Shown here one piece after another: positions 2,759 through 29,491 of a stretch of 30,217 nucleotides of DNA. A program made the translations under genes and the position numbers. The notes beneath the pieces are model-generated. The model was not told the origin of the DNA. It ran no database searches and worked only from the letters and a program-made list of their open reading frames with translations. Source of the stretch: Nitrososphaeraceae archaeon (GTDB lineage Archaea; Thermoproteota; Nitrososphaeria; Nitrososphaerales; Nitrososphaeraceae); NCBI GenBank assembly GCA_035297365.1, contig DATGZA010000020.1, positions 1 through 30,217 on the forward strand. Direction: 5' to 3'. Within the stretch, counting starts at the first letter, position 1. Every line of letters begins with the position of its first letter.

Positions 2759-2857
2759 ATAGATGGTCCCTAGAAAATTACTGACCATCTGGAGTAACAC
2801 CGATAGCGGTGCAAAAATAAGAGTCTAATCATGTAGTATAATGGATAATATTTACGA
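2759..2857. repeat. Dispersed element copy 1 (left-flank type A)
   Basis: GGAGTAACACCGATAGCGGTGCAAAAATAAGAGTCTAA at 2791-2828; TATTTAC box at 2849; extra 8-bp inverted repeat AGATGGTC/GACCATCT at 2761-2790. Confidence 0.95.
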
Positions 2858-3250
2858 TTAATACTCTACACATATTCCCGGAACATGGACCTTCTTGAAT
2901 AAATGTGGCGAGACTACTAAACTATCGTCATCATATTTTAAAAGTGACGATTGTGTTTCAGAACTAAACAATATTTTGTTAACCGCTTCCTTATAATGCT
3001 CTATCGATTCCCAAACTGCATAATTAATAAATACACTACTTTTTCGAATCCCTTTGTGCAATTGTGTGGAAATAAATCCTGGTTGCTGTTTAAAGTTAGT
3101 AGCATCCTCTGCCCAATCCTTTAAAAACTGCTCAACCTTGTCTGGTTCTACATTGAATTTGTTTATTAGAATTACCGAGCCCTCTATTTCTTTTTCTTCA
3201 ATCTGATCCTTAAATTTTACTCTCTCGTCCATTTCAATAAATCTTACCAT
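2858..3250 (-). CDS. Antibiotic biosynthesis monooxygenase (ABM) domain protein
   Basis: VILINKFNV...QQPGFISTQLHKG...FINYAVWES pattern. Confidence 0.88.
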   Translation of the reverse strand: MVRFIEMDERVKFKDQIEEKEIEGSVILINKFNVEPDKVEQFLKDWAEDATNFKQQPGFISTQLHKGIRKSSVFINYAVWESIEHYKEAVNKILFSSETQSSLLKYDDDSLVVSPHLFKKVHVPGICVEY

Positions 3251-3437
3251 AACAATACAATATAATAATAACTAAGGGAATAAAGGATTTCTTTTTTACG
3301 ACAAGGACAGGAATACTACTGGGTTACTGAGGATAAGATAGAGGGTGTGAAAAGAAGGTCGTTTTTTCACAGAAACTAAATTATTAATCCTTGTACTATT
3401 AGAATTTATTTAATACAAATATACATATACATATATT

Positions 3438-3849
3438 TCGTCGTCAAACGTTAATGATAATAATAATTTCCTTTACAATTTTACCAAAATTATATTGAAT
3501 TCCCACAAGTCTATACGATCGGTAGGAATAACTAATCATAATGGTACTATTCTAAATGAAAGAGTTAGAAAAGCACTAAAACTTCCTTACCGAAGAAGAA
3601 AATAACGAATTTGCAAAAAATTCAATAATTAGGCATAGAGCAAGATTAAAATTTGAATCAAAAATGGGTAAATTAATCTATGCATTTAGGAGATATGAAA
3701 ACATGAGTAGATGTCTAATTCCAATCAATGAAAGTTATTACCTATTTTTTACTACGGATGTTGAGGAAAGTAATTTCGATGAAATAATAATGGAAAAAAT
3801 TATTCTATTCCTCTCTTGTTATCATATATTTTTAGTTTTTATAGTTTAA
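3438..3849 (+). pseudogene. Thaumarchaeal DUF6659-like protein, frameshifted
   Basis: KIILNSHKSIRSVGITNHNGTIL joins LTEEENNEFAK...MGKLIYAFRRYENM across a frameshift near 3585. Confidence 0.55.
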
Positions 3850-4141
3850 AATTAATGTGACAAAATAAAATATCAAATAATATAACTTTTTAACGTGTAC
3901 ATACTGTTTAATGCAATATTTTTTGGATTGAATTCAAAATAGATGGTATCAGTTGATATCAAATGGTAATAAAAGAACACATTGAAAATTGCCATTCTCT
4001 AAAGGAATAATAAGTTTAAATTTATATTCATTTTCTTTTATTATGTCAGTTCATTGAACAATTACTAAAATTCTGATCTTATTCCTGTTAACATCCTATC
4101 TATGGAGGTTATGTAATTAGTTAATTTATTGTTATTGAAAT

Positions 4142-4159
4142 TTTTTCGGCGCCGAAAAA
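4142..4159. promoter_or_regulatory. Perfect 18-bp palindrome, candidate protein-binding site
   Basis: TTTTTCGGC|GCCGAAAAA in AT-rich intergenic DNA. Confidence 0.45.
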
Positions 4160-4200
4160 TATTATTAAAATTATAAAAAAATTATTTTCATAAAAATTAT

Positions 4201-4239
4201 CAGCAGGATGGCTGGACTGGCTCAGATGCCATCCTGTTG
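4201..4239 (+). other. GC-rich stem-loop, candidate small RNA or structural element
   Basis: CAGCAGGATGGC (4201-4212) pairs with GCCATCCTGTTG (4228-4239): 12 bp with one G-U on the + strand, 15-nt loop. Confidence 0.45.
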
Positions 4240-4825
4240 TCAGTTACCCATCTTTCGTGTAATGATATGATTACTTTGTATTTGTATTATTTATAATATT
4301 TGGTAATAAAAAATATTTTTTTACTATATTAATTATCGATAATAATCTAGCTCATATACATTAGTAGATATATTGAGCTCTTATTTATTGGAGTATTCAC
4401 GGTATGGACTTTCTTTTCTTAGTATGATTCTAACACCATCTACATGTCAGTCCAATAAAAGGCAGCGTTGCAATAAGAGTTGCTCCTACTATCATCCCTA
4501 TGATGCACATGTTGAATTTTGTTAACTTGAACATATTTCTTTATTCTCTTTAGAATAGAAAAAGATTTTCCACGTCTGAAAACAGAATTGGCTGTAAAGA
4601 AGAAACTTAATTTTGAACATACAAAAAAGAAGACCAATATACATATAAGATACTATTTTTTAGTATTTTTTAGTAACTGTGAAGCTATGGTAAATATGTT
4701 TAAATATATTGTAAACTATATTCTGTTTTAATTAAAACATAAACTGAAAATATTATCAATATGGTCACCTTTGGTGGGGGTTCATCTACATGTTCGGTAC
4801 CATGGTCATGAGTTGAATCCATCAC

Positions 4826-5008
4826 GTAGGAAGGTTTTACCACCTTGTATTTGGCTTTTATTATTGAAAACTTATTTTTAAATTGATTTTGAAATATTAA
4901 GTTATGTGAATTCGTTAGAAATTTAAGTAACACATTAATACCGATAGCGGTGCAAAAATAAGAGTTAGATGTTACGGCCAAACATTAGAATATTTAAGAT
5001 TTACTTCA
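4826..5008. repeat. Dispersed element copy 2 (left-flank type B, homologous to 29302-29491)
   Basis: TAATACCGATAGCGGTGCAAAAATAAGAGTT with ACCG at 4940; TATTTAA at 4991; ~110 bp of left flank aligns with copy 7. Confidence 0.95.
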
Positions 5009-5087
5009 ATTACATTTTCATTAATAAAATATCATCAATAAAATTAAAAAACATAAAATTAATTACAGGTTTCCTTAAGTATCAAAT

Positions 5088-5345
5088 TTAGGATCGCAGA
5101 GTTGAACTTTCAAATACAAATTTTTTAAAAGCTCCAATATCAACAAACTCATCGCATTTATTCAAATTAGAATCGCATTTAAATCCATTATGTCCTGAAA
5201 TGGATAGATTTGTACCATCATATTGAAGTGTAATTAAAGAATAGTTTGTATTTGGATCTGTTGAATTACCTTTATTTATCCATGAACCAAATAACTTGTT
5301 AGAATATTGACCAATATTTTGTCTTTCCATTGTCTCTATTGACAA
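5088..5345 (-). CDS. Hypothetical protein, possibly a C-terminal fragment
   Basis: 85-aa ORF whose 5' end lies next to an IS end; no recognisable motif. Confidence 0.35.
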   Translation of the reverse strand: MSIETMERQNIGQYSNKLFGSWINKGNSTDPNTNYSLITLQYDGTNLSISGHNGFKCDSNLNKCDEFVDIGAFKKFVFESSTLRS

Positions 5346-5405
5346 CGAGAACTTTCAGAGAATTTACAAAAAAAGCTAAATGGATCTTTATTAGGCAAGA
5401 TGAAC

Positions 5406-5449
5406 AACCAACGAGATATATTCTTACCTATTTTTGGGATAAACTCTAA
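5406..5449 (-). mobile_element. Solo IS5-family left-end remnant
   Basis: Reverse complement TTAGAGTTTATCCCAAAAATAGGTAAGAATATATCTCGTTGGTT matches 37/44 nt of 16952-16995, which precedes an IS5 transposase fragment. Confidence 0.7.
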
Positions 5450-5594
5450 TTATATATAGGGTAATTTGTAATAATAAATTGAATATTTATCGATAAGACA
5501 AAATCAAAAAAACGTAAAATATGAGAAGAGGTAACGTATTAAATTGAATATTTATATAACAATAAGAATTTTAAATCTAATAAATCTTAAATAA

Positions 5595-5852
5595 TTGATT
5601 CACGTAATATATATTGAATTGTCGGGTGAACCAGCAGTATACGATTGGGATAGAATAGTACTCAGACCTGTACGTTCAAAAGACAATCAAGATGTTGGAA
5701 ATGTGATTTCAGTAGAAAAAGATACTTTTACGATACATTCAGGTCGCTATGAATTTATAGTGTCAAAAAACGATGTTGAAGGCTTTACTGGAGGAGAAGT
5801 ACTTTTGAGCAAAAATTATGTAGACTTGCAGAAAAGTAAAATTAAACCATAA
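5595..5852 (+). CDS. Small hypothetical protein, PRC-barrel-like
   Basis: DWDRIVLRPVRSKDNQDVGNV pattern; true start may be TTG near 5619. Confidence 0.6.
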   Translation: MIHVIYIELSGEPAVYDWDRIVLRPVRSKDNQDVGNVISVEKDTFTIHSGRYEFIVSKNDVEGFTGGEVLLSKNYVDLQKSKIKP

Positions 5853-6274
5853 TTTTTTATTTTAGAAAATTATAATTCCAAATATTTAGAGAAATTTATT
5901 TGATAAAATGTTTCCCTAACGATAGTATCTTAATTCCATTTTGATTTAAAATATGCATTCAAAGAAGATTTTTACAATTGTGTCCAAAAAGAATTATTTT
6001 TAGAAAGCTCTAACTGCAAAAAGAAAGGTAAAAGGGGGTTAAAATAATATTTTTGAAACTTTGTTGATTCCCACTATAGTGGTGTAAATTAAAAACTTGC
6101 TGAAGTGAGTTAACGTATCTATGATTCCGTATTGAAGAACAACAAATCAATGGTTGTGAAACTATAGTATATCTGTTAACCATTGCTATATAATCTGGGT
6201 GATAGTTGGTTATTGAATAGTTACTAACTATTGAAGAGTCTTCAGTTGTTACCCACCCTCAGGTATAAAATTAA

Positions 6275-6535
6275 TTAGTTGTTTTCCATGGTAGTTTGTA
6301 ATAAATCTCCTATTTCGTTATGCATTTTGAGAAAGTTTAATCCTTTTTCCGTAGTCTTGAATGTGTGGGTCCCATCAATATATTCTATTAGATTGTATTC
6401 TATCAAAATAGAAAGATATTCTTTTAATTGATTATAACTTACAAAAGCTATGTACATAATTTTTGTCTTGGTTGCCCCTCCATTTGCAGCATCAAGTATA
6501 TTACTAACTATTTCTGTTCTGCTTCTATTTGCCAT
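6275..6535 (-). CDS. Winged helix-turn-helix regulator (thaumarchaeal expanded family)
   Basis: RSRTEIVSNIL...GATKTKIMY...SYNQLKEYL...TTEKGLNFL. Confidence 0.88.
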   Translation of the reverse strand: MANRSRTEIVSNILDAANGGATKTKIMYIAFVSYNQLKEYLSILIEYNLIEYIDGTHTFKTTEKGLNFLKMHNEIGDLLQTTMENN

Positions 6536-6810
6536 ATTATTAATAATGGATTTACTTATTTTAAGATAACATCACATGAAGAGGGAAGGTAATTATAGAA
6601 AAACATTCTACATATTATCTGCAAATAAAAAAATATAAGAAATATCTATGTCTTGGTTCAAAATTGTGTTATGAAATACTTTTCATATTTAATTTTGTCA
6701 ACAATTCATTATATGGATTGTTTATTTTTAAATATAATTATTAAATCTGGAACTATCCGATGAAACTTTTTATTTTTCCTTTGGAAATTAATTAATTCTT
6801 TTAAGTATTT

Positions 6811-7110
6811 TCATACCATTATTTCTTTAATCATAGTTTTGTATTCTTCTGCTTTCAAAAATAATTCATAATTTAATTGATGTGATTCTTCAATTGTTGG
6901 CTTGATATCTTTGTTGGAACAATAAACAGAATAAAACAAAAGTACTTGTGCAAAAAATGCTCCTAAAAGAAAATCCAAATCATTGGTTACTGTTTTCTTT
7001 AAAGCGTATAAAGGGTCCTGAAATACTTGAATTGTATAAGGTAGAGTTTCTATTGTATCTTCAGTGGCTTTATTAAATAAGTTTCTAAGAATTTTTTCTC
7101 TATCCAACAT
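6811..7110 (-). CDS. Hypothetical protein
   Basis: 99-aa ATG-started ORF with an AT-rich promoter-like upstream region; its 5' part is duplicated at 24597-24781. Confidence 0.6.
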   Translation of the reverse strand: MLDREKILRNLFNKATEDTIETLPYTIQVFQDPLYALKKTVTNDLDFLLGAFFAQVLLFYSVYCSNKDIKPTIEESHQLNYELFLKAEEYKTMIKEIMV

Positions 7111-7181
7111 TTATCAATAATATAAACTTGTTAAAAGATTTTGTATTGTTTGTTCACGTATCATATCAAATAATTTAGTTA
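6994..7181. repeat. Segmental duplication 1, intact copy
   Basis: Near-identical direct repeat of 24597-24781. Confidence 0.95.
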
Positions 7182-7397
7182 TAGATTAATGTAAATATTA
7201 TTATACAAAAGATTAAGGAGGTTTTACGTCGGAAGTGAATTCGTCTATATAGTGTAGTTCTACTACATAATATTTAGATTTTATTATTAGCAATTTATTT
7301 TAGAACTATGAAGATTTACAATAACAGAGTACTTATTTGTAAGTCCCAAGTTTAAATTGAAAATATTCTATTTCATTTAATCTGTTAAAGAATGAAT

Positions 7398-7459
7398 AAC
7401 GATAGCGGTGCAAAAATAAGAGTCCAAATTTACATAATAGATATGGATATTTAAGATTT
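7398..7459. repeat. Dispersed element copy 3 (left-truncated)
   Basis: AACGATAGCGGTGCAAAAATAAGAGTCC; TATTTAAGATTT at 7448. Confidence 0.92.
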
Positions 7460-7515
7460 TTTTTATATTTTCAGTTATAAAGTTAGAATTTATATATTAT
7501 TATATTTACATTCAG

Positions 7516-8196
7516 TTGATGAAAAATAATTTAACTTTAATAACGTTACTTTCAATACTATCAATTCTTGTTGTTGTATCATCATTAACTAAAACAATTC
7601 ATACACAAGAACATCAAACCGAATTATCAGAATCTCAAAATGTCGAAGTCAATGTTGATGTTGGAGGAGGAAATGGAACTACAATACTTACTACTTTTAC
7701 ACCTTCACAGATAGAAATTAACGCAGGAGAAAGTGTAATCTGGAAAAATCCAACATCAGTAGCTGAACCACATACCGTCACTTTTATTGCTGGTGGAGAC
7801 TTTTTTGCACCCCCTGTGGCACCAGTTAATGTTCCAAATTCAACTAAATTTACTGTAGTACCTTCTGACGCTAATGTTGAAGCGAAGATATCTTATAATA
7901 ACCAAAATAATATTACAAATGAAACAAAAACTGTGATGATAGATAATGCCAGGTCTACTTACCCTGTGATAATAGATTCAACTGCAAAAAATGTTACCTA
8001 TTTAAATCCAAATTCAATTTACACAATGCGAGGTGATGAAAAATATGTTAATTCAGGTTGGATGTGGCCTGAAGGTATGGCACCACCAGGTTACCCAAAA
8101 ATTACTACATTTACAGTATTATTTGAAAAATCAGGAACATATTGGTATATATGTTTAGTACATCCATGGATGGCAGGCAGTGTAATAGTCAACTGA
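7516..8196 (+). CDS. Secreted or membrane-anchored cupredoxin (plastocyanin/azurin-like)
   Basis: N-terminal hydrophobic signal; EPHTVTF and YICLVHPWMAG supply type-1 Cu ligands (H, C, H, M). Confidence 0.9.
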   Translation: MMKNNLTLITLLSILSILVVVSSLTKTIHTQEHQTELSESQNVEVNVDVGGGNGTTILTTFTPSQIEINAGESVIWKNPTSVAEPHTVTFIAGGDFFAPPVAPVNVPNSTKFTVVPSDANVEAKISYNNQNNITNETKTVMIDNARSTYPVIIDSTAKNVTYLNPNSIYTMRGDEKYVNSGWMWPEGMAPPGYPKITTFTVLFEKSGTYWYICLVHPWMAGSVIVN

Positions 8197-9036
8197 AACT
8201 GCAGAGTATCACTAACACAAGCAGTCTAAAATCAGAGGTTGTCCTTGTTTAACTACATTGATCTGATCATAATGAGTGGGTCAATATCCTTATCTTGCTT
8301 TTTCAGTGATATTACATAACATGTAGGAAGTTGTGATAATCCTTGGTTGATTTTCAAAGTATAACGATGCTGTTGACGAAAAATATGAAGAATATATACT
8401 ACAAAAATGAGAGAATAAATCCTATAAACCACAGGCAGTCACGTCAACTCATTGCTTCACCGTGTCCTATGCTAGTAGGATAGATCATACTGTCCTGGCA
8501 TTGCTGCAAAATAGTACTTTTGTGTACAAAAAAGATATACCTTATTTTTTTAACTTCATCATAACCTTTGACAAGATGATGAAATATATTGCATTGTTCT
8601 TAGTATTGTTAATAATCTTCTAATAACAGAATTAGTTTATCTAAGTCACCAATAACATCTTCATTCACTTTATCCATTTTCTTATTTTATCCTCTTCGGT
8701 AGACTAGAATTAATATAATAACTAATATTAGAAAATATCTAGCCCTACTTTATAGAAGGATTCAAATCCCAAAAATCTAGCTGATCACCAGTAGTGAACC
8801 CATTTAAGTTATCTGGTCCCATTTAATCTTTATAATATAAAGTACTTTAGTAACATATTAAATATACCTATTTGGAAGTATGAAATCCATTTAGTTAATG
8901 GGAGCGAGTGGAAAACATCTATTATGTTTTTATATTATTTGTTGTTCTATCTAAATTATAGATAAAAGATTTTATCTTATAGAAAATCAGAAGTATAAAA
9001 ATTTTTAAAGTTATAGATCTTTTCTATAGCAGTAGA

Positions 9037-9477
9037 TTGATGCAAAACAGAAAAACATTAGAAAATTTGAACAATTCAAAAATAGCCAGATTAGCAACAG
9101 TAGACCCTGAGATTAATCAACCTTACCTAATACCCGTGGTATTTGCATTTGATGGTAATAATATCTTTATTCCAATAGACGACAAACCTAAAAGGGTAAA
9201 TTCAAACCAGTTAAAAAGAGTAAAAAATATACAAAAAAATCCTAATATTTCTTTTCTAATTGATACTTATGACGATAAAGATTGGAGCAATCTTTCTTAT
9301 TTAATAATCCAAGGTAAAGCAAGAATAGTAGATAGGTTAAAAGATAGAGATATGATAGATAAAGCTCATTCACTATTGTCAGAAAAATATCTTCAGTATA
9401 AAAAAATGGTAGGAATTGGAGACATCTGCATTATAATTGATATTCAAAAGACTATAAGTTGGAAATATTCTAATTAA
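9037..9477 (+). CDS. PPOX-class probable F420-dependent oxidoreductase (Rv0121-like)
   Basis: ARLATVD...PVVFA...IDDKPK...LKRVKNIQKNP...DWSNL. Confidence 0.85.
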   Translation: MMQNRKTLENLNNSKIARLATVDPEINQPYLIPVVFAFDGNNIFIPIDDKPKRVNSNQLKRVKNIQKNPNISFLIDTYDDKDWSNLSYLIIQGKARIVDRLKDRDMIDKAHSLLSEKYLQYKKMVGIGDICIIIDIQKTISWKYSN

Positions 9478-9538
9478 GAAAAACAGATTCTAATATTGAT
9501 TACATTATGTCTTTATAGTATAAAAATTAATAATAGAT

Positions 9539-11851: not shown

Positions 11852-11941
11852 TCTACGAGTATTGGTCCGTCGGGAGTAATACCGATAGCAGTGCAAAAAT
11901 AAGAGTCTTCTGTTAAGTAAATAAAATAATATTTATGAATT
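11852..11941. repeat. Dispersed element copy 4 (type A, diverged)
   Basis: GGGAGTAATACCGATAGCAGTGCAAAAATAAGAGTCT with ACCG at 11881; TATTTAT at 11930. Confidence 0.93.
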
Positions 11942-12028
11942 CTTTTATGTTAGTATACTTATCTTATGAGGATATTATGACATGTTTGTGGTTAAATTTT
12001 GATCCTGTTATATTTTTTCTTTTCAGCA

Positions 12029-12751
12029 TTATTTTTTGTTATATTCATCATGACGACGAACCCAGCCCATAGGAAATTCATAACCATCCTCGTCACGTAC
12101 CTTTGGAACTAGATCAAGATAGTTATATGTATTATTCAATATATCTATTCCACGTGCATAAGCAGAATATGTGTGGAATATTTTACCCGACGGATCTTTA
12201 TAAAAGATACTTACTCCAGGCAGTTCTGAAACAGATGGATTTTGTATGACAAAATTGTAGAAACCTTCTTTCTTTTCTAGTTCTTCTGATGTAAATGATA
12301 CATAATAATCACGGTTAAAATCTGTATCAGAAGAAGAAACCCACTTAAAATCCCAACCCATCCGCTTCTTGTATGCATCTATCTTACTATAAGGTGCTTT
12401 AGAAATTGCTATCATGGTCACATCTCTTTGGTTCAAATGTACAATTATGTCATTAAAATTGTCTGCCCAAAAAGAACATGACTGACATGCTGCATCCCAT
12501 GCAGGATCATACATCAAATGATATACTATTAGCTGGCTTCGTCCATCAAAAAGTTCTGACAATGATTGTTTTCCATTTGGTCCATCAAAGACATATTCTT
12601 TATTGACCTGAACCCAAGGTAGATCTCGTCGTTCTTGACTAAGCTGGTCACGTAATACAGTAAATTCTTTTTCTTTTTTAAGTAGTTCTTTTCGAGCTTC
12701 TATCCATTCACTTTCAGAAACAACTTTGTGATTATCTAAAATGTAAGTCAT
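12029..12751 (-). CDS. DUF899 thioredoxin-like protein
   Basis: EWIEARKELLKKEKEFT, LFDGRSQLIVYHLM, CQSCS, LDLVPKVRDE, WVRRHDEY. Confidence 0.92.
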   Translation of the reverse strand: MTYILDNHKVVSESEWIEARKELLKKEKEFTVLRDQLSQERRDLPWVQVNKEYVFDGPNGKQSLSELFDGRSQLIVYHLMYDPAWDAACQSCSFWADNFNDIIVHLNQRDVTMIAISKAPYSKIDAYKKRMGWDFKWVSSSDTDFNRDYYVSFTSEELEKKEGFYNFVIQNPSVSELPGVSIFYKDPSGKIFHTYSAYARGIDILNNTYNYLDLVPKVRDEDGYEFPMGWVRRHDEYNKK

Positions 12752-15917: not shown

Positions 15918-16721
15918 TTATTGTTGTTGTGGTAGTGTTTTATTACCCATAATCCTGTTGAACACATCTAATTCTTTTTCATATAATATTTCAGTTAAAT
16001 TAGAATTTATTCTTAAAGCTTTCTCATAATATACTCTGGCGTTATCATCTTTTCCCATGTTACCTAGTATAAAAGCCATAGTACTTTGCAAATATTCATC
16101 ATTAGGATTATCTCTAGCTGTTTTTTCTATAACTGAAATTGCTTCTTCATTCTTTCCCATTTCAGCTAAGGCTTCTGCTTTGTTATTTATTGCATAAACA
16201 TCAGATGCATTAATGGATAAAGCTTGGTCAAAGTACTTTATTGCCTCATCATTTTTTTCTAATGCCAATAAAGCACCTCCTTTATTAATTAGAGCATAAA
16301 GATCTGATGCATTCATAGAGAGTAATTGGTCAAAGTACTTTATTGCCTCATCATTTTTTTGCAATCCCAATAAAGCAAGACCTTTATTATTTAAAGCCTT
16401 TACATTGGATGGATTTATTGCTAGAATCTGGTCAAAATACGGAAGTGCTTCATTATATTTGTGCAACCTCCATAGAGCAAGACCTTTGTGATTAAGAGCA
16501 TTAATCTCTGATGCATTTATCGCTAGGATTTTGTCATAGTATTTGATTGCTTCGTGATATTTTTTTTGGTTGAACAAAGTATAGGCTGTCTCTAACATTG
16601 AATCTATTTCTGTTGAATTAATAACATTTTGAGCATCAGCTAGCGTAATAGTATTAACAGAAGCAGATATATAAAGAATTGATAAAGCTACAATAATTGT
16701 ACTAAAATACAAAAATTTCAA
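15918..16721 (-). CDS. Secreted tetratricopeptide-repeat protein
   Basis: Signal peptide ending ADA; 34-aa repeats ALxNKGxAL...EAIKYFDQ, also visible as a 102-bp DNA period. Confidence 0.9.
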   Translation of the reverse strand: MKFLYFSTIIVALSILYISASVNTITLADAQNVINSTEIDSMLETAYTLFNQKKYHEAIKYYDKILAINASEINALNHKGLALWRLHKYNEALPYFDQILAINPSNVKALNNKGLALLGLQKNDEAIKYFDQLLSMNASDLYALINKGGALLALEKNDEAIKYFDQALSINASDVYAINNKAEALAEMGKNEEAISVIEKTARDNPNDEYLQSTMAFILGNMGKDDNARVYYEKALRINSNLTEILYEKELDVFNRIMGNKTLPQQQ

Positions 16722-16870: not shown

Positions 16871-17095
16871 TATTTATTTTCATTATATTTTTAGTTCTAT
16901 TTTTTAGATTAATTGTTTACTTGTATTTTGTTATATTTATTAGTTTTTTTCTTAGAATCTATCCCAAAAATAGATAATAATATGGCTCATTGGTTCCTAT
17001 ATTACAATGATAATTGAATAACAGCAGCAAGAATAATTCACATTGGAACAATTATACGTATTCCATATGATCTTTACAACTAAATTAATATTTTA
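16871..17095. repeat. Segmental duplication 2, copy A
   Basis: Near-identical direct repeat of 29987-30217. Confidence 0.95.
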
Positions 17096-17333
17096 CCTGT
17101 AGAAAAACCAGACAATACATAGGGTCGTCCAATTGTTCTATATCGAAAAGTATTTGATGGTATCATATTTGTATTGAGTACCGGATGTCAGTGGAAATTG
17201 TTGCCCAAAGAATTTGGTTCTGGTTCTACATGTTATACAAGATTTCAAGAATGCATACAATCAGGTATTTTTTGATACATTATGGACCAGATTACTAAAA
17301 TTATACAATTTAAAGAAAGGAATCAGATGGAAA
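16952..17333 (+). mobile_element. IS5-family (IS427-like) left end and N-terminal transposase pseudogene
   Basis: ILPVEKPDNT*GRP...VFDGIIFVLSTGCQWKLLPKEFGSGSTCYTRFQE, with in-frame stops. Confidence 0.88.
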
Positions 17334-17740: not shown

Positions 17741-17815
17741 ATCGATAAATCAACCCTGGAAGACTACGGGCCCGTTAGTAGTAACACCGATAGTGGTGCA
17801 AAAATAAAAACCTAA
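17741..17815. repeat. Dispersed element copy 5 (type A, no right-hand TATTTA box)
   Basis: GTAGTAACACCGATAGTGGTGCAAAAATAAAAACCTAA with ACCG at 17786; left flank ATCGAT...CCCTGGAAGACTACGGGCCCGTT aligns with copies 1 and 6. Confidence 0.9.
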
Positions 17816-17849: not shown

Positions 17850-18119
17850 CTAGAAGTCTTCATCTTTGTTTTTTCTTCTTGTATCCAAAAATGCTACAAT
17901 ATCATCAATAGAATTTACTTCTGTTAAGTTGCTTAGCTATTTTCTTGATTGTAAAAAATCTGCAAACATAACATAACTTTGATACAGTTTCTCTGATATT
18001 TTGCATTTGTATCTTTTGAGATTAGATATTTTGAAAATTCCTATCAAATTTTTATTTAAATTACTTTCAGCGGTTTCAATTTGCTCCAATACATTTTCTA
18101 AACTATGAGAGTAACTCAT
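17850..18119 (-). pseudogene. Probable N-terminal fragment of a tyrosine recombinase/integrase
   Basis: Joined frames read MSYSHSLENVLEQIE...KYLISKDTNAKYQRNCIKV..MFADFL...*LSNLTEVNSIDDIVAFLDTRRKNKDEDF*. From memory this resembles the N-terminal domain of Nitrososphaeraceae integrases; no catalytic domain is present. Confidence 0.55.
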
Positions 18120-20254: not shown

Positions 20255-21591
20255 TCAAAATTTGGGTTTCCAATAGTTGTGATTCCATTTGATAAACTCT
20301 GGTTTTTGTTTGTCATCGTCATATTTTATTTCATATATCTCATTATGATCGAGTATTGTTTTAATGAGTAACTCACAGTTAACATAAGATATAGTGTTGG
20401 AAGCTGAAATCCAGATATTGTATTTTCTAACTTCATCCTTTTTGGCATCAAGTTGATATTCATCTAATTGAATGAGATATTTATTTTTCCACAAACCGAT
20501 CTCCATACTTTTAAATTGAAAAGTAGTAGCTTCTTCAATACTTCTTCTAATTTCATTACCATATAACGGTTCAATCTGTAATAATGTCACGCCCCACTCG
20601 TTATGCCAATTAAGAAAATCTATACAGGCGTTTCTTGTTTTATGATTCTCCCAATCTTTTTCTATACGATGTTTTTCCATCATCATAATTCTAACACTTT
20701 TTGAATCTACGTTATATTTATCTGACCTTCTCCTTAATCTTGCCTGATATTTTACTAATGAAGTATTTGACTGTGACTTTAGAAACGTACTGGCCAACAT
20801 TGTATTTATAGAATCATAGTGGACAGCATATTGGAAAAGTGAACGATACATATTTTTCATTGATTCATCAAGTAAAATTATTTTCTGACCTTGATCAATT
20901 TTCTTTTTTAAACCAATTCCTTCATATTCGAAAAAAGTATCAAACGGACCAGACAATTCAGAATCAATATTAATTCTATCAATCATTCCTCGTTTATCTA
21001 CTGGAAAATTACTATTTCCAAAAATAGGCACAGCAGCGTTTGGTCTATTATTACAAAAATTAAATACATGTATAGACTTTTGATGTTTAACAAAGTATTT
21101 ACCCAGATCCTGAAAGAATTGGCTACTTGTTTGTGATGGTAAAAGATGTTCTAATTCGTTTTTGTGTTTAGTGATAAAACTTTCATATGCACTGAGATCC
21201 AATAGAATATGACCTTCATCACAAAGCTCACATAATCTTCTTACTATTGCTGGTCCATTTCCCCAAACAGGTATTCCTACTAAGGATTTAGCACTATCGA
21301 TTTCAATTGCATCACCTCTTGCAATTGCTATTTTCAATGCTAAACAAGATTCTCCTCCTTTTAGTTGAGGAAATTCCGTATGTACTTTTAATGCAAGTTG
21401 AAGAGGTAATATCAAGGAATCTTTCTTAAACCAGATTATAACTCCGTCACCTGTAAACACTGTCTGAATTTGTTTTTCATATGGAGATAAATAATCTTTA
21501 ATTACAAGTAGTAAATCTTTAATATTATCATTCTGTATATCGGTATCTTTTGAAGAACCGACAATATCAATACAAAAAAATCATACATCAT
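20255..21591 (-). CDS. Class III nucleotidyl cyclase fused to an unknown C-terminal domain; ATG out of frame by 1 nt
   Basis: The frame stays open upstream of 21460 to FFCIDIVGSS (21580); FTGDG, KIAIARG, VWGNG...RRL motifs; one more A in the A7 run 21574-21580 links it to ATG 21591/21588. Confidence 0.8.
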
Positions 21592-22573: not shown

Positions 22574-22944
22574 TCACTCTCGCAAGAAATTTCTTAGTCT
22601 TGCTTGTTCAAATTCTATCATTGCTAATGTTGGATTATGTTGATTATAAAAAGTCTCTGCATTTTTCATAGCCAATTCTATGGATATTTTTGCTTCTTCT
22701 TCTGATCTTCTTGGCTGTTCTTCTGCAAGTTCAATTGTTTTTTTACCAGTTCTTCTGTAAATCCCAATTGTTCTTTTATCTGTTCTTGTGTAAATTCCAT
22801 TTGTTTTTTTACCTGTTCTTGTGTAAGTTGCATTTGTTTTTTTACCTGTTCTTGTGTAAGTTCCATTTGTTTTTTAAAATTTTCTTGCATTTGTTGATTC
22901 AATCGATTCCAAAACTCTTTTTGCCAAATATCAATGTCACTCAT
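22574..22944 (-). pseudogene. Coiled-coil protein with 11-aa repeats, probably frameshifted near 22733
   Basis: QMELTQEQVKK repeats; the register resumes as ELAEEQ in another frame that stays open to TGA at 22574-22576. Confidence 0.55.
22729..22875. repeat. 33-bp tandem repeat, about 4.5 units
   Basis: TTCCATTTGTTTTTTTACCTGTTCTTGTGTAAG-like units at 22729, 22762, 22795, 22828, partial at 22861. Confidence 0.9.
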
Positions 22945-23044
22945 CTTAATTATTCAATAACAGGAAGATGCTATTAAATATTAATAATTAATTTTAAAAA
23001 TATTTCGATACATTTTTGATCTTTGATACTGGTATGATTTATAC

Positions 23045-23812
23045 TGCTTTGTTGCATAACTCATTCTTCCTAACACATTTACCTAACCTATTTTAGGCAT
23101 ATTATGTTAACTAGAGAAATTACATGAGTCTCTTGTTAAACGTGATGAGATATTAGTTGATTTTGATGTTATAGATAACTAGGATAATGACCTCGAGGAG
23201 ATGAATAAGGACAAGGAAGGTAGAAAATTCGTATATCCATGAATGGATTAAACATAAGTGGAATGTAAAGAGAGATTATCTAAAGATATATGTAGCGGTT
23301 GAAATTAAAAGAAAGAGAATTTTATCATTACATTTAACCAGCAGTAACAGGTACATGATGATAAAATACTATCAAAATTAGTTGAGGATATAACAATAAA
23401 GCAGAATAAGCAAGTAGAAATTACTATCTCAGACGGTTCGTATGACAGTAACAGGAATTTTCAATTCCTATCATTTAAGGGAATTGACCAGCAATCAAAG
23501 TAGAAAGAATTCCAGATGCAGTAAGAAGACCAATCACGATCTTACAAGAAAAAAGATTGCGAATATAGAAATAACTTCCAAGAATCGAAAGCTAACGTTA
23601 GCTACAGACAAAGGTGGATTGTAGAACTGTCTTCTCTTGCATCAAGAGAATATTTGGGGAATATGTTACTGCTATTAGATTTCAGAATATGATAAAGGAG
23701 ATAATATTGAATGTATAATTGTACAACTTTTTGAGAAGCACGACTACTTTAACATGATTACAGATTAGACGAAAATAAAAAACATTGTCTAAAGGAGTTA
23801 TGCAACAAAGCA
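23045..23812 (+). mobile_element. Internally deleted, degraded IS5-family (IS903-like) element
   Basis: Perfect 18-bp TIRs TGCTTTGTTGCATAACTC / GAGTTATGCAACAAAGCA; transposase relics ESLVKR...MNKDKEGRKFVYP, EWIKHKW, DGSYDS, RWIVE. Confidence 0.92.
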
Positions 23813-24009
23813 TTGCAGAGTAAAAGGTGTTAACATATGTTAGGATAGTATGCCATCAAAAATTCTTGTTGTTATTAAAATGTTCTATTAAAAGTTTAAT
23901 GGTTGTACTAAACATTCTGAATATACTATTTTATTATAAAATGGTACCGTTTACACGGAAGTAAAAAAATTTCATACTAGTTAAATATTTTAAGACTAAA
24001 TAATTATTA

Positions 24010-24090
24010 ATGATTTGGCAAATAATATCCGCAGTTGTAGGAATAATAATTTTAATACTGCTGTTGAGATTCCTTTTTGGAATAATATAA
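24010..24090 (+). CDS. 26-aa single-TM microprotein
   Basis: MIWQIISAVVGIIILILLLRFLFGII*. Confidence 0.45.
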   Translation: MIWQIISAVVGIIILILLLRFLFGII

Positions 24091-24105
24091 CAGGATTGGA
24101 TACTA

Positions 24106-24336
24106 ATGATGAATTTTACTTCAAAATTTATTCAGGCTGCACTAGCTCTCTCCTCGTTCAAGGTAGAAGAAATCAAAAATAACAGAATCAAAGAATTACT
24201 AGAAATAAAATCAAAAATTAAAGATAATCCTATAGCAGTAGAAAATTGGTTTGATAATGAAATCAATAAAATAATAAATGTGACAGAAAACAGTGCATCA
24301 GTCGATATTGAGTCTTTGATAAACAAAATAAAATAA
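24106..24336 (+). CDS. Hypothetical helical protein
   Basis: 76-aa ORF 15 nt after the TM peptide. Confidence 0.5.
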   Translation: MMNFTSKFIQAALALSSFKVEEIKNNRIKELLEIKSKIKDNPIAVENWFDNEINKIINVTENSASVDIESLINKIK

Positions 24337-24373
24337 TAAAAATTTTAATATAAAAATGTAGATAGTTATTACA

Positions 24374-24469
24374 TTGAAATGTTCTGAACGTATGTGTGAT
24401 AAAGAAGATTGTAAAGCTAGCCAGTCACTATTTGAATGTTCGGGTTGTATTCTCAATATATGTTGTTGA
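24374..24469 (+). CDS. 31-aa Cys-rich microprotein
   Basis: TTG start; MKCSERMCDKEDCKASQSLFECSGCILNICC* (7 Cys). Confidence 0.4.
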   Translation: MKCSERMCDKEDCKASQSLFECSGCILNICC

Positions 24470-24518
24470 TGGAAAAGTTTTCATTTTATTAAAATAGCAA
24501 TAATAATTAGTTAACAGA

Positions 24519-24600
24519 TGTATTCCATTACCAGAGAAACTGTACAATATTACAAGAAGATTGAGAACTGTACGAGGTAGAAAGTTACTTTCCTGATTTC
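24519..24600 (+). mobile_element. Short internal transposase fragment (ISL2-like, DDE_Tnp_4 type)
   Basis: CIPLPEKLYNITRRLRTV then, after a frameshift, EVESYFPDF; recognised from memory of thaumarchaeal transposases. Confidence 0.55.
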
Positions 24601-24781
24601 TTTAAAGCGTATAAATGGTCCTGAAATACTTGAATTATATAAGGTAGAGTTTCTATTGTATCTTCAGTGGCTTTATTAAATAAGTTTCTAAGAATTTTTC
24701 TCTCTAATATTTATCAATAATATAAACTTGTTAAAAGATTTTGTCTTGTTTGTTCACGTATCATATTGAATAATTTAGTTA
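24597..24781. repeat. Segmental duplication 1, decayed copy
   Basis: Matches 6994-7181, but the start-codon region is altered (TCTCTCTAATAT vs TCTCTATCCAACAT). Confidence 0.95.
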
Positions 24782-24963
24782 ATTTAATATGATATTTTCC
24801 ACAATTAGTGAAAAGTAAATGATAACAACGGTAATTAACTGATAGCATATAAAAACAAGATGATAACAATAAAAATATTAAAACTACTTTTTAATGCCTC
24901 AATATTTGCTGATTCCACTATATTTTTCACTTTTATATGATTCATATTTACAGATGCTAATAA

Positions 24964-25146
24964 ATAAATGGAAGAATCCCTGAAGGTTTACTTTGTGCAA
25001 AATTTCAATGCTATAACAAGCCAAGAAATCAATGTTCTGAATGTTCAATTTATTATTGCATTGAACATGTAACATCACATATTCATACTGAAACTTTCCA
25101 AGATTTACATAGAGAACAAGAACGAGATATAGACAATACCAGATAG
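24964..25146 (+). pseudogene. AN1-like Zn-finger small protein lacking an in-frame ATG
   Basis: CAKFQC-x7-CSEC-x4-CIEHVTSHIH; ATG at 24968 is out of frame. Confidence 0.5.
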
Positions 25147-25346
25147 ATTCCTTTTTATTATTAATCCCTTTATTGGTAACAATAAGTATTAAGTACTTGA
25201 TTTATAAATATATTTTATCTTTTCAATGTGATCCTTTAATTAAAAAATAAAATTAAAAAGATATATGAAGAGTGGCTTTATCAAAATACAATACACATTC
25301 CCAATGAATAGATATCTTTAATATATTAGAAATTATTTTACGAGTA

Positions 25347-26081
25347 TTGATTAAGGATACCACTCATCTAGAATTACACATCAAAGAAAGTAATTATATC
25401 CGGGATATTATATTCGGATTTGGAGACGGTATAAACACCTCTCTGGGAATTGTTGCTGGAGTAGGAGGAGCTTTAATAGTAGCTGATGTTGTTATTCTTG
25501 CTGCATTAGTAGGAATGTTCACTGGTGCAAAAGCAATGGCAGTCCAGAATTATCTTGCAGTAAAGTCTCAGCGGGAAATATTAGAATCAGAAATAAAGCG
25601 AGAAGAGTTTGAGATAAAAAATATGCCTAATGAAGAAAGAAAGGAGATCGAAGATATATACCGTGCCAAAGGATTTGAAGGAGAACAGCTTGAGAATATT
25701 GTAGAAAAAATAACATCAAACAAAGACGTATGGCTCAAGACCATGTTGACTGAAGAATTAGGACTTAATCTTGACATTCTTGGTAGTCCCTTGAAGGGTG
25801 CATTAGTGATGTTTGGATCTTTCCTATTAGGTGGTATCCTCCCTATTCTTCCTTATTTTGTAGTCAAAGCTGGAGTTATATCTTCAATAACTGCTATTGG
25901 AATAGCTATTGTCATCAGTGTTTTGTCTTCTTTCATAGTTGGTGCATTAAAGGCTCGTATGGCAAAGAAAAATTGGATCAAAGGGGGAATAGAAATGGCT
26001 GGACTAGGAACAGGTATAGCATTAGTAGGTTATGGTCTAGGAGCTGAACTTGCAAAAACAGGAATCGTAAACGTTCAATAA
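25347..26081 (+). CDS. VIT1/CCC1-family Fe/Mn transporter
   Basis: IRDIIFGFGDGI, MAVQNYLAVKSQRE, YRAKGF, MLTEELGL. Confidence 0.92.
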   Translation: MIKDTTHLELHIKESNYIRDIIFGFGDGINTSLGIVAGVGGALIVADVVILAALVGMFTGAKAMAVQNYLAVKSQREILESEIKREEFEIKNMPNEERKEIEDIYRAKGFEGEQLENIVEKITSNKDVWLKTMLTEELGLNLDILGSPLKGALVMFGSFLLGGILPILPYFVVKAGVISSITAIGIAIVISVLSSFIVGALKARMAKKNWIKGGIEMAGLGTGIALVGYGLGAELAKTGIVNVQ

Positions 26082-26394
26082 ATGATACTTTAACACCCCA
26101 TTTTTGACATCCAAATAAAACGCGTTAATCAATAGAAACATATTTTAATAGCCGATAAATAAACAGATTTAATAGTTTTAATATAGATTTCCAAAATAAA
26201 GCTTTTGTTACATAAGATTTATTTTAAAAGTGCAAGTAAAAGAGTAGAGAATAGTGAGCTGAAACGTTATTGTTGAAAAATTGGTTTAGCTCATTGTGTT
26301 TAGTGTTAAGATTATTTTCTAGCTCATTACTATTGTCTTCTTGTGGTTATGTTTCTTTTTCTCTTTTTCTTTTTTAAATTTAAATCATATGGAC

Positions 26395-27195
26395 AACATA
26401 CGTCACATTCGACTCATTGCAATACAATGGGCTTCTCTTGGACTCTTCTAATGTTTGAATGGTTTAGCAACCTGTGTCATAGATCCCTTACTTTGCTGAT
26501 ATCCCTGATCTTAAATGTTTTTTCATTATATCCGAAATAATAGGCAAGTTGTTCATTGCCTGCACATATTTGTTTGATCAATTCCTCCACTCTAATCCCT
26601 GCAAATTCCTTAATTTCCTTGAGTAAGGCCAAACTTTTTTTGATATGCTAGATCTTTAGGTGATCGAGATATTACTACATTTTCTGAAAGCCCAAAAGCA
26701 TCACATTATAGAACTACATTGTTTCCTTTGCATCCTCCTCATCGACTACTTCCTTTAATTTCAATCTAGCAATTACTTTTGTGACTTTCAATAATGTTTT
26801 AAAGACCCTGGAAGATCCGAAGACTTTGAGACTGACCTCCTTATAGAGCTCCCGTACCATTATTCTGGCTTCAACATTCAAAATAGGATTGAATTGATTT
26901 GATTAGAAATCCCGTATAATCTGGTAGTTCCCCCTTAACCTTTTTTCTTCAACTTCACTCAGTCTGTCAATGAAATAGTCATTATCTTCTTTTGATTTAC
27001 GTTTCTTGAATGGAAAGATAGGATCAAAGCAATCTAACACCGTGTTCAGTATAGGAAACTCATTCAGGTCGATTTTATTGTTATGTTTCCAGTTTGCTCG
27101 ATTCACCGAATTTGCTAAAGGCATAATACTGGTAGGGGATCCTATTGTGGCCTTATTCCATGTTTGTTTATCGAAAAAGGTCTCCTATGCATGCC
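26395..27195 (-). pseudogene. MCM-like AAA+ helicase pseudogene (C-terminal part)
   Basis: FSINKHGI/ATIGSPTSI..AN, LDCFDPIF (cf. SRFDLIF), SRVFKTLLKVTKVIARLKLKEVVDEEDAKET (MCM lid region); multiple stops and frameshifts. Confidence 0.75.
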
Positions 27196-27384
27196 AATAG
27201 TAATTATTGTAAATAATTAATTATAGAAACAGCTTTATTTTTAAATATACCATCTTTGTGTAACATAAGTTATAATTAAAATACAATCAAATATATACTA
27301 AAAATAATGATTGATTTCTATATCGGTGGCAAATTTGTATTATATTAAGGTTATAGTTATATATTTGTAATAAATCATTATATT

Positions 27385-28029
27385 ATGAGTAATGATAAAG
27401 ATCCTTCTATATCTTCAGATGCTAAAGAAAATGTTTTAGATAGGGAAGTAAGTGAAACAATTCATGCTGACGGAAGTGTTACACCAGAAATAGAACAAGA
27501 AGAACAACAATCACAATTAGGAAATAAATCCAAGGAATTACAAGATTATTCAATTTCAAAAGATAACCTTCCTTCTTTTAAGAAAATATTAGTTACTGAT
27601 GATGGAAAAGATATATCAAATAAAGCACTTAATTATGCTGTCTCTTTATCTAATTCCACTGGAGCAGAATTATTCATACTTCGTATATTGCACGATTTTG
27701 AAAAATTTGGAAATGTTTCCTTAGAAGGCTCATATGAAAAATCAGAAAGGGATAATCAACAAGAGTTTCATAGAAATATCAAAGGTGATGTAATAGATGC
27801 TATGGAAGAAAAAATAAAGAAATGTCAAGAAGCTGGATGTCAAAATAAAATTTCTTATAAATTTCTAACTGGTAATGTAGTCGATGAAATAGTGAATGAA
27901 ATTAATAATAATAGCTATGATTTGGTCGTTATGTTAACTTATCATATAGATTCATGGTTTAGCTCATTATTTAGTGATGTCAGAAAAATAATGAATCATA
28001 TTAGTAAACCTATTTTGATAATACAATAA
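27385..28029 (+). CDS. Universal stress protein (USP) with acidic N-terminal extension
   Basis: FKKILVTDDGKDISNKALNYA, GNVVDEIV, DLVVM, KPILII. Confidence 0.88.
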   Translation: MSNDKDPSISSDAKENVLDREVSETIHADGSVTPEIEQEEQQSQLGNKSKELQDYSISKDNLPSFKKILVTDDGKDISNKALNYAVSLSNSTGAELFILRILHDFEKFGNVSLEGSYEKSERDNQQEFHRNIKGDVIDAMEEKIKKCQEAGCQNKISYKFLTGNVVDEIVNEINNNSYDLVVMLTYHIDSWFSSLFSDVRKIMNHISKPILIIQ

Positions 28030-28424
28030 ATTCAGATAAATGAAATCTTACAAACTATACTAATACTAAATTAATCTTATGTCTGATAGAGAAAAACCAG
28101 ATTATAGAAATTCTATTAGAGTCTATAAGTGAAGTAGAATCATTATGTGTAAGAATTACTAGAAATAAGAAAGATGTATAAGGTCAAGCATTAAATTATG
28201 TAAAAGAAAATCCAAACAATATAAAAATTTCAATTCCAGAAAGTAAATGAAGCTTTTAAAAATTTATATTTATATACGAATTCATCAAATGGGATTCGTC
28301 ATACACTATATGAACCCATTCTTTATTTTTCTGATGCTCTTTTTATGTTAGTATCTTGTTCTACTTTTATTTATTATTTAGTTTCTAAAACTTATGATGT
28401 AAAAATAAAAGCATCTTGAAGGAT

Positions 28425-28531
28425 ATCGATGGTGGGCCCTAGAAAACTACTGTCCCGTTGGGAGTAATACCGATAGCGGTGCGAAAATAAGAGTCTAATA
28501 TTATAGCAAACAGAGATAATATTTAGGAATT
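28425..28531. repeat. Dispersed element copy 6 (type A)
   Basis: CCCTAGAAAACTACTGTCCCGTTGGGAGTAATACCGATAGCGGTGCGAAAATAAGAGTCTAA with ACCG at 28469; TATTTAG at 28520. Confidence 0.95.
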
Positions 28532-28744
28532 ATTTCATCGGTTTATTATTTTGGTTTTGTTATTTTCAGTACTTAAAAATGCAGAATTGGGTAATCTCAA
28601 TTCTATTAGATGTTCCTCCAATTTTTAGAAAAGAATTATACTGTATGAATTTTTCTTACTAACTAATTATAGTACTAACTAATCATAGTATCAATTAGAA
28701 AAATTATTAATGGTTGTTAAATCATTGTAGATGTTATATTCTTC

Positions 28745-29134
28745 TTAATCTTTATATTCTAATTTGAATTTGACAGTACTGTCCTCATCTTTTGGTAATT
28801 CTTTGGTTTGACAGTATTTAGAATTATCAGCTGATTCTTCTAAACATACTTTAACATTATCTCCTGCCTCACCAGATATAGTTTCCTTTAATTTTTCTGT
28901 ATCATCATTTATGTTTACTGTTGTTTCTACCTTATCATCTTCTGTTTTGATAGAGACGTCTGCTTCCGAATCGGCATTTGCGTCATTCTCGATAGATATA
29001 TCAAGTTTATAATCTTCTGCAAAAGATTGAGTCACCAGGAAGGAGGAAACAAATAAAGTTACTATCATTGATAAAGATATAATAAAGGTTATGTTAAATC
29101 GTAGATAATTTTTGTCCTTAATTATATTATTCAT
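28745..29134 (-). CDS. Secreted acidic hypothetical protein
   Basis: Signal peptide ending QSFA; two Cys in the mature part. Confidence 0.7.
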   Translation of the reverse strand: MNNIIKDKNYLRFNITFIISLSMIVTLFVSSFLVTQSFAEDYKLDISIENDANADSEADVSIKTEDDKVETTVNINDDTEKLKETISGEAGDNVKVCLEESADNSKYCQTKELPKDEDSTVKFKLEYKD

Positions 29135-29301
29135 ATTTGTTATTTATTATTATTACTTTATAAAAATTTTTAAATACATATATCTATAAAAGAATCCAGA
29201 ATTAAATACAGTATAATATTCTATTTAATATATGGTATTCTTAAATTTTATTAATTATGAAATGAGTTATTTAAGTTAATCATTTTCCAAATATAACCCA
29301 G

Positions 29302-29491
29302 GTAGGAGGATTTCACTACTATCATGTACGTCGATTTTATTATTAGAAACTTATTTTTTAAATTGTATTTGAAATGTTAAGGTACGTGAATTTGAAGGAA
29401 ATTTGTGAGGGAGGGAGTTAATACCGATAGCGGTGCAAAAGTAAGAGTCTAATGTTATGGTACAAAGAGATATTATTCAAGATTTACTTCA
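29302..29491. repeat. Dispersed element copy 7 (type B)
   Basis: GGGAGTTAATACCGATAGCGGTGCAAAAGTAAGAGTCTAA with ACCG at 29423; TATTCAAGATTTACTTCA at 29474. Confidence 0.95.

Follow-up and report, generated by a model that had tools for sequence, protein, structure and literature searches.

A genus-restricted intergenic repeat at candidate joints between gene modules in Nitrososphaeraceae

The window studied here is a stretch of 30,217 bp, comprising the entire contig C20 (DATGZA010000020.1) of a Nitrososphaeraceae archaeon assembly (GCA_035297365.1; 2.52 Mb, 110 contigs, 30.5% G+C). Among its genes are unrelated accessory ones, which include those for a CDF transporter, ABM, HTH_45, cupredoxin, PNPOx, LLM oxidoreductase, M10 peptidase, DUF899 and TPR proteins, and the spaces between them contain repeated copies of a short, polar, non-coding sequence, in the following called the element, with a nearly invariant 27-nt core. 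Among soil nitrifiers, the ammonia-oxidising archaea of the Nitrososphaeraceae hold a major place; to our knowledge the assembly of their flexible genome is poorly known, with few mobile-element mechanisms worked out. An earlier note, made from the letters of the window, had pointed out seven co-oriented copies of the core and proposed that they form an integron-like cassette array. The element is a junction repeat, specific to its genus and not described before, and we favour, at slightly less than even confidence, the interpretation that its motif is a recombination junction at which gene modules would be exchanged.

The element in the window and in the genus

The pattern ACCG-N4-CGGTGCAAAAATAAGAGTC, allowing at most one mismatch, was matched six times in the window (copies c1 to c4, c6 and c7 in Table 1), all six on the plus strand, and the same search of 100 shuffled windows gave a mean of 0.00 matches and a maximum of 0. 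The copy at 17786 was found to be genuine yet decayed (4 mismatches to the 27-mer; nhmmer E=1e-10), and an eighth copy, likewise decayed and likewise on the plus strand, was recognized at 125-151 (5 mismatches; nhmmer E=3e-9), so that the seven copies of the earlier note were all recovered, in the single orientation described there, together with one more. Considering all cores of this genome (G000), the mismatch spectrum was continuous, from 0 to 6. Neighbouring cores in the window are separated by 954–10,683 bp, with several genes per interval on both strands. The copies were also said to avoid credible genes, which held: the sole listed open reading frame (ORF) overlapping a core is 4700-4981 (TTG start, 93 aa), and since its conserved part begins past the core, the core copies can be regarded as lying outside credible genes. 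Furthermore, the core has stop codons in all three plus-strand frames, and on inspection its variation showed no codon pattern.

Position-wise conservation was determined from 138 distinct copies, taken from the window's genome and eight relatives. The conserved unit was thereby found to be a plateau of 42 nt, GGGAGTAAT-ACCGATAGCGGTGCAAAAATAAGAGTC-TAATGT, spanning positions -9 to +32. The core sequence given in the earlier note was thus present as written, but its extent had been set too short, the conserved element being this plateau together with families of arms. Positions -6 to +32 (AGTAAT ACCGATAGCGGTGCAAAAATAAGAGTC TAATGT) were conserved to about 75–99%, barring +14 (61%), +29 (58%) and +31 (52%), and the GGG at -9 to -7 was conserved to 70%, with the arms reaching merely 40–70%. 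Within the core, positions holding G or C differed in about 6–24% of the copies and most positions holding A or T in about 1–7%, with +14 and +29 as exceptions. The inverted repeat of the core is limited to the 4 bp of ACCG/CGGT.

The whole element covers about 110–150 bp and consists, in plus orientation, of a left arm, the plateau and a right arm. The left arm is optional, being absent from many copies, and occurs in two types: H, with the consensus GTGAACCCGAGAAAACTACGGGCCCGTC, and H', which is AT-rich, ends in ...CAAGGAG and usually has a B module ahead of it. The right arm is of type A (TAATGTTATAGTAA..GAGATAATATTTAAGATTTACTT, in some copies extended by about 50 nt more), of type B (..GTAGAGATACTACTACCTTGTATTTAGCTTTTATTATTAGAAACTTATTTT), or of neither type. 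The B arm holds an inverted copy of the 3' half of the core, and as judged from 45 copies the two typically pair at 11–13 of 16 positions (range 6–14), so that an imperfect inverted repeat of 16 bp is formed, in which the mismatches at +23 and +24 (A.A and G.A) are constant. In the window, the complementarity between core and B was 9/9 for c2, and for c7 the B segment 29342-29358 was 82% complementary to the 3' half of the core at 29437-29453.

The element is also polar with regard to the genes beside it. A gene was counted as tail-on when its 3' end faced the element from the opposite strand, and on the right-arm side the nearest gene was tail-on in 39 of 57 copies, with two more copies having no gene there. 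Right-arm genes closer than 200 nt were nearly all tail-on, the left side was mixed (32 versus 23), and about 40% of the copies were directed at a convergent gene's 3' end. At the ABM monooxygenase locus, the stop codon is where the A arm begins. These results agree well with the idea, already put forward from the letters of the window, of a non-coding, strand-polarized element attached to gene 3' ends.

In the 2.52-Mb assembly, nhmmer gave 33 matches, 30 of them at E<1e-3, and of these 30 copies 20 were located on only three contigs (8 on C20, 6 on C58 and 6 in the first 19 kb of C63), with one orientation per contig. The core with at most three mismatches was present in all 24 other genomes of the genus and in none of 16 genomes from the order's other families. 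A second sample gave 21/21 genomes of the genus, versus single copies in 3 of 129 genomes representing 17 other genera of the family, where the 129 include two unpublished genomes (G073 and G111), neither of which had a match; the lone core in another genus (L171) is located at a contig end and was uninformative. Copy number among 25 genomes of the genus ranged from 1 to 84. The near-complete relative G017 (10 contigs, 99% complete) had 34 copies in at least nine clusters, each locally co-oriented, with both orientations overall, and G010 had seven co-oriented copies in one 14-kb run as well as a separate tandem pair 135 nt apart. The exact degenerate core pattern had 0 matches in a viral sequence collection. 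The repeat is a genus-restricted family, clustered in flexible genome regions; the clustering in variable regions with local strand polarity, as claimed from the window, was hence also seen in the wider genome, but not the notion of one single array, considering the separate clusters of G017 in both orientations. No description of the repeat was found in the full text of the literature searched, supplementary lists of attC sites or repeats lying outside that search.

Genome comparisons at the core

When the window was compared with the genus using BLAST, five homology blocks were found to begin 4–10 nt before a core (Table 1). In the relatives these blocks lie elsewhere, in other order and orientation, as illustrated by G017, where the ABM block stands ahead of the CDF block, the reverse of the window. 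Among 80 loci encoding relatives of the ABM protein, the element is found at the window and at only two others (L092 and L122); at these three the gene, the A arm and the core are conserved, and the sequences then diverge three ways right after ...CGGTATTACTCC(C). The nine cross-genome pairs with the most similar right arms (identity of at least 0.92) had unrelated left arms in all cases (at most 0.43), and cross-genome pairs sharing left arms had unrelated right arms in most cases. Only three copies of the relatives had both flanks and the element conserved in the window's genome. Breakpoints at the motif between related genomes, which the earlier note had named as a check, were thereby seen both as block starts and as arms uncoupled across genomes.

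The two arms were also compared within a set of 168 copies. Left type and right type were independent of each other (chi-square p=0.46). At +12 and +29, core variants were associated with the right arm (p=0.018 and 8e-6) and not with the left (0.82 and 0.35), and those at -5, -8 and -9 with the left arm alone. Since the former follow the right arm and the latter the left, exchange would have occurred between about -5 and +12. In G010, two loci were 100% identical over 1308 bp starting from exactly -9, with unrelated DNA to the left, and a further pair showed 99.7% identity over 726 bp, starting from -20. Such near-identical block pairs represent very recent events; the G010 assembly is 6.3 Mb in size and perhaps holds two strains, from which its identical loci may separately stem.

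Synteny was evaluated using the intergenic regions of a G017 contig, considering only regions whose two flanking genes both match the window's genome. Synteny was kept at 2 of 11 regions with an element, versus 57 of 104 without. At one of the two syntenic element regions, the window's genome has no element, but 1.75 kb of other DNA instead. That stretch (G000 C63:14490-16240) lies between convergent genes and has several short adjacent ORFs that resemble pieces of one broken gene.

As judged from these alignments, DNA on the core's left side assorts independently of that on its right side (arm plus gene), among copies as well as species. Since the two sides do so, the core marks joints between modules of the flexible genome, with the right arm seemingly travelling together with its gene. 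In the interpretation that we favour, the motif would form the unvarying middle part of a non-coding junction element that is specific to the genus and located directly downstream of genes; its right arm usually abuts the stop codon of an opposite-strand gene and is partly complementary to the 3' half of the core. Crossovers inside the core, at about -5 to +12 around TAAT/ACCGATAGCGGT, would exchange modules, and the gene-proximal arm would move with its gene. As the agent of such exchange, we slightly prefer a trans-acting site-specific recombinase encoded elsewhere to plain homologous recombination across the 42-bp stretch of identity. Site-specific recombination would account for the sharp plateau as well as for the polarity and the units of gene plus site. 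That exchange takes place at the core is shown by genome comparison only, and its site-specific nature is a proposal.

With the core, a short, near-invariant, genus-specific sequence is at hand that marks the joints of independently assorting modules, metal transporters, redox enzymes and regulators included, and through which module exchange becomes directly testable. Given a dedicated enzyme, this would be a functional counterpart of the integron in archaea, made of unrelated parts; in the absence of one, it would plainly exemplify how a short repeat family can shape genome plasticity via recombination.

Several observations weigh against such exchange, in particular against its site-specific form. 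Since an alignment stops wherever a conserved repeat ends, homologous recombination or gene conversion across the 42-bp identity explains the same block pattern. Beyond the 4-bp ACCG/CGGT, inverted binding arms of the recombinase type are absent from the core, and the crossover zone was mapped by weak linkage only (p=0.018 at +12). No excision circle, empty site or core-to-core conserved cassette was seen, and at C63:14490-16240, the counterpart of a 280-bp spacer that in the relative holds only the element, there is no trace of a core. Apparent loss of synteny can result from paralogues, the G017 contig was poorly syntenic overall, copies from related genomes are non-independent observations, and the gene calls behind the neighbour and synteny counts came from our own crude ORF picker. 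With regard to possible enzymes, PF00589 matches in the window's genome were located on C12, C18, C26 and C9 and none on C20, C58 or C63; in G017 the nearest such matches were about 18 and 29 kb away from any copy; and among the 25 genomes no tyrosine-recombinase-like match was found on a contig with a listed core, the lists of cores being partial. The linkage to tyrosine recombinase genes that the earlier note had suggested looking for was thus absent from the cluster-bearing contigs.

Alternative explanations and known systems

As an alternative, the element could be a non-autonomous mobile element, similar to miniature transposable elements with inverted repeats (MITEs), repetitive extragenic palindromic (REP) sequences or short interspersed nuclear elements (SINEs), that copies itself to sites downstream of genes, with the rearrangements being a by-product of copy number. 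The wide range in copy number within one genus would agree with this, as would the continuous decay of the copies in the window's genome, the G/C bias of the core variation, which is what neutral decay would give at 30% GC, the subfamilies of arms, and the tandem pair of G010. The 103-nt unit of c4 moreover has 95% identity to the copy of a relative whose DNA differs on both flanks. However, the left and right arm types are independent, leaving no fixed moving unit, and none of 109 flank pairs tested revealed a clean empty site. A search of four copies for terminal inverted repeats gave only the internal complementarity between arm and core, and no target-site duplications were visible on inspection of the printed copies. 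TnpB (PF07282) was found in 0 of three genomes, where Y1 TnpA (PF01797) also gave no match above cut-off, and an origin from IS200/IS605 or omega-RNA was dropped because of these two results. As for a rolling-circle origin (HUH Rep, IS91 or Helitron-like), IS91 Y2 or viral Rep proteins (PF04986, PF02407) gave no match in five genomes, which is weak evidence as control genomes were equally silent; the minus-strand GGTATTAC resembles (N)AGTATTAC, which we take to be a nick motif. Taken together, we consider self-copying as the origin of the observed pattern to be unlikely, if still the best placed of the alternatives.

REP sequences and bacterial interspersed mosaic elements (BIMEs), the dRS3 repeats and intergenic mosaic elements (NIMEs) of Neisseria, and Correia-type repeats are genus-level intergenic families at gene 3' ends, variable in copy number and associated with rearrangement. 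The element shares all of these traits with them, but differs by its polar build with two different arms, by its low copy number (1–84), by the absence of terminal inverted repeats and in that no REP-associated tyrosine transposase (RAYT) or Y1 protein was found.

A further possibility, which we hold to be rather unlikely, is that the copies encode small non-coding RNAs or act as an outward promoter module, in either case read on the minus strand, where the A or B arm would supply a B recognition element (BRE) and TATA box and the core would form the first 36–42 nt of the RNA. The sequence TATTTA (TAAATA on the minus strand) is found at +51 to +56, about 25 nt upstream of the core end, conserved to 55–70% in both arm families, and it resembles the TTTAAATA-like boxes located about 30 nt upstream of the tRNA genes of this genome. 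These tRNA upstream regions were used since a promoter weight matrix built from regions upstream of start codons gave no positional signal. The 135-nt tandem unit would also suit such a role, as would the placement of the B module at two loci. There, a small conserved ORF (about 4700-4822, minus strand, encoding MDSTHDHGTEHVDEPPPKV... followed by a hydrophobic tail; second locus on G000 C30 near 772) lies directly downstream of the B module on the minus strand, a promoter-like placement.

Folding analyses argued against a structured RNA. For 33 H-type copies, RNAalifold gave no consensus structure on either strand, and left arm plus core had folding z-scores of -0.5/-0.4 versus dinucleotide shuffles. 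In the 4-bp stem, transitions affecting only one partner of an ACCG/CGGT pair were seen on both sides among 138 copies, with no more than two compensatory changes, which gives no support for a maintained stem. A T5 tract would fall 9–13 nt into the putative RNA, both A and B arms are absent from some copies, the copies decay freely, and a large share of them would be aimed at the 3' end of a convergent gene. An Rfam scan of the whole window at E<=1 returned only an irrelevant match at 4529-4585 (E=0.94), thus with no family for the repeat, in line with the earlier note, in which no known element had been recognized; the window contains no tRNA genes. In three soil metatranscriptome runs (6–8% of words) low-depth contigs were obtained mainly over coding regions, carrying no information on strand, ends or level. 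One RNA-library contig reaches the core end at 2826 and continues with unlike sequence. Joints seen in RNA run X4 had short sides (20–41 letters) on the repeat itself and were not used as evidence for excision.

The position of the element at gene ends could instead be explained if it were a form of punctuation, i.e. a terminator or a module of the 3' untranslated region, possibly bidirectional and retained for insulating neighbours from each other. The tail-on placement, often between convergent genes, is what such a role would predict, and T tracts are found in the minus-strand core (TTATTTTT) and in the plus-strand B arm (TTATTTT), with the 3' half of the core and the B arm forming the imperfect inverted repeat described above. 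The stability of the hairpin was however similar to that of shuffled sequences, with z-scores of -0.9 and -0.24 for core plus B and of -0.14 and +0.41 for core plus A. A terminator would need neither a stretch of 42 nearly invariant bases nor restriction to one genus, most genes of the genome are without the element, and the independent assortment of the arms would be left unexplained. We therefore find this explanation improbable.

Comparison with integrons brings back the question of how modules would be exchanged. Sedentary integrons and clusters of attC sites lacking integron integrases (CALINs), such as those with the VCR repeats of Vibrio, are alike in having homogeneous, lineage-specific repeats downstream of unrelated accessory genes, with local co-orientation, with neighbours that change at the repeat among relatives and with one arm carrying an imperfect inverted repeat. 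In contrast to these, the element has no IntI, no R''/R' motifs and no significant hairpin, its units contain several genes on both strands, its many clusters are scattered and occur in both orientations, and what is conserved is a 42-bp sequence rather than a structure. The pdif modules of Acinetobacter plasmids, which are bounded by short conserved sites and shuffled from replicon to replicon through Xer exchange by a recombinase encoded elsewhere, offer another parallel, but the element has no 11-6-11 dif architecture, is co-oriented instead of alternating, and is chromosomal and archaeal.

It could also be envisaged, as a doubtful special case of exchange at the core, that soil Nitrososphaeraceae carry out integron-like exchange having neither IntI nor an attC hairpin, using double-stranded, lineage-specific sites and a fixed chromosomal recombinase acting in trans. 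The site would then be the 42-bp core, and a gene with its downstream site would move as a unit. One candidate enzyme would be a serine recombinase of about 200–240 aa (N-terminal ...YLRVSTEEQ...), which 20 of 25 genomes of the genus and 135 of 150 of the family (97 of 102 high-quality ones) carry in single copy, these counts including the unpublished genomes G073 and G111. In L207 (1489-2121; G017:C10:151689-152132) its gene lies between bioB-like and bioA-like genes, and it resembles a fixed gene of the chromosome more than a mobile gene. As a genus-specific partner of the element this protein was rejected, since it is single copy across the family, has no core beside it in L207 and is missing from the window's assembly, in which tblastn found none.

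That the copies form an integron cassette array proper, whose attC sites IntI would recombine, is highly improbable: the layout of gene plus downstream site in one local orientation and the right-arm imperfect inverted repeat with its constant internal mismatch would suit it, but 0/25 genus genomes reached the 265-bit cut-off of the integron integrase model (TIGR02249; best 54.9 bits), the attC motifs (RYYYAAC/GTTRRRY) were not found in the -9 to +45 consensus, no significant fold was seen, the apparent exchange zone lies outside the inverted repeat, and the intervals reach 10.7 kb with several genes on both strands. Of the integron-like array of the earlier note, the organization and the breakpoints accordingly stood, and the mechanism and the family membership did not. 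As general background in support of such systems, Ghaly et al. (2022; PMC9668308) describe archaeal integrons with canonical attC sites and report CALINs as common in archaeal metagenome-assembled genomes. Finally, a CRISPR-like origin was dropped, as a k-mer scan of the genome gave no core-like array and the cores are spaced by kilobases.

Individual copies, neighbouring genes and other repeats

The eight copies of the window are listed in Table 1. The distances to the 3' ends of minus-strand ORFs proposed in the earlier note held for six of its seven copies, the third being the exception, as noted there; the ORF ending at 17937, beside c5, is weak (73 aa, GTG start).

Table 1. Copies of the element in the window, with core mismatches counted against the 27-mer and distances given from the core end to the stop of the minus-strand ORF whose position is shown in brackets.
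Copy	Coordinates	Strand	Left side	Core	Right side	Start of block shared with relatives	Surroundings	Core end to ORF stop (nt)
c0	120..191	+	no left arm	125-151, decayed (5 mismatches)	A-type arm	120 (one relative)		
c1	2760..2868	+	H-type arm, 8-bp stem 2761-2768/2783-2790	2799-2825, perfect	A arm, reaching into stop codon of ABM gene	2791	ABM gene 2858-3250 (minus)	33 (2858)
c2	4838..5006	+	B module 4838-4882, degenerate H' arm	4940-4966 (1 mismatch)	A arm	4936 (one relative)	ORF 5088-5345 (minus), tail-on	122 (5088)
c3	7261..7465	+	B-like module 7261-7305, degenerate left arm	7398-7424 (1 mismatch)	A arm		cupredoxin gene 7516-8196 (plus) next; exception to tail-on rule	
c4	11864..11966	+	partial H arm	11881-11907 (1 mismatch)	A-type arm		DUF899 gene 12029-12751 (minus), tail-on	122 (12029)
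c5	17748..17812	+	H-type arm	17786-17812, decayed (4 mismatches)	neither A nor B arm	17780 (one relative)		125 (17937)
c6	28432..28535	+	H-type arm	28469-28495 (1 mismatch)	A arm		between convergent genes 27385-28029 (plus) and 28745-29134 (minus)	250 (28745)
c7	29317..29515	+	B module 29317-29361, H' arm	29423-29449 (1 mismatch)	A arm with extension	29413	ORF 29538-29999 (minus), tail-on	89 (29538)

We also clustered 60 ORFs located on the right-arm side, drawn from 105 contexts. These fell into 43 clusters, whereby a constant gene-family partner of the element was ruled out. The largest cluster, having nine members and thus forming the commonest neighbour, is a family of 375-aa proteins that combine a receiver domain with an N-terminus resembling nucleotide cyclases, seen in the window, on C58 and C63 of G000 and in relatives. 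Its representative in the window, ORF 20255-21460 (minus strand, 401 aa), had no Pfam or NCBIfam match and a weak cyclase lead (0.86) in a protein atlas.

The window contains several other repeats. At 966-1220 (minus strand) there is a C-terminal fragment of an IS630-family transposase (NCBIfam E=9e-4), located within a 530-bp repeat (972-1501) that has many occurrences in relatives at 80–85% identity. The segments 16871-17095 and 29987-30217 form a duplication, 99–100% identical, that extends to the right end of the contig and probably explains why the assembly stopped there; it passes into a repeat of about 380 bp (16952-17332) with multiple copies, of which one relative's contig has five. 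A block of about 195 bp (6987-7181), overlapping the start of ORF 6811-7110, is repeated at 24590-24781 with 92–96% identity, and a unit of about 780 bp (23033-23813) has at least eight copies on one relative's contig. In-frame tandem repeats were found at 16138-16443, with three 102-nt units inside the TPR gene 15918-16721, and at 22727-22891, where four 33-nt units lie inside ORF 22678-22944 (...QMxLTQEQVKK...).

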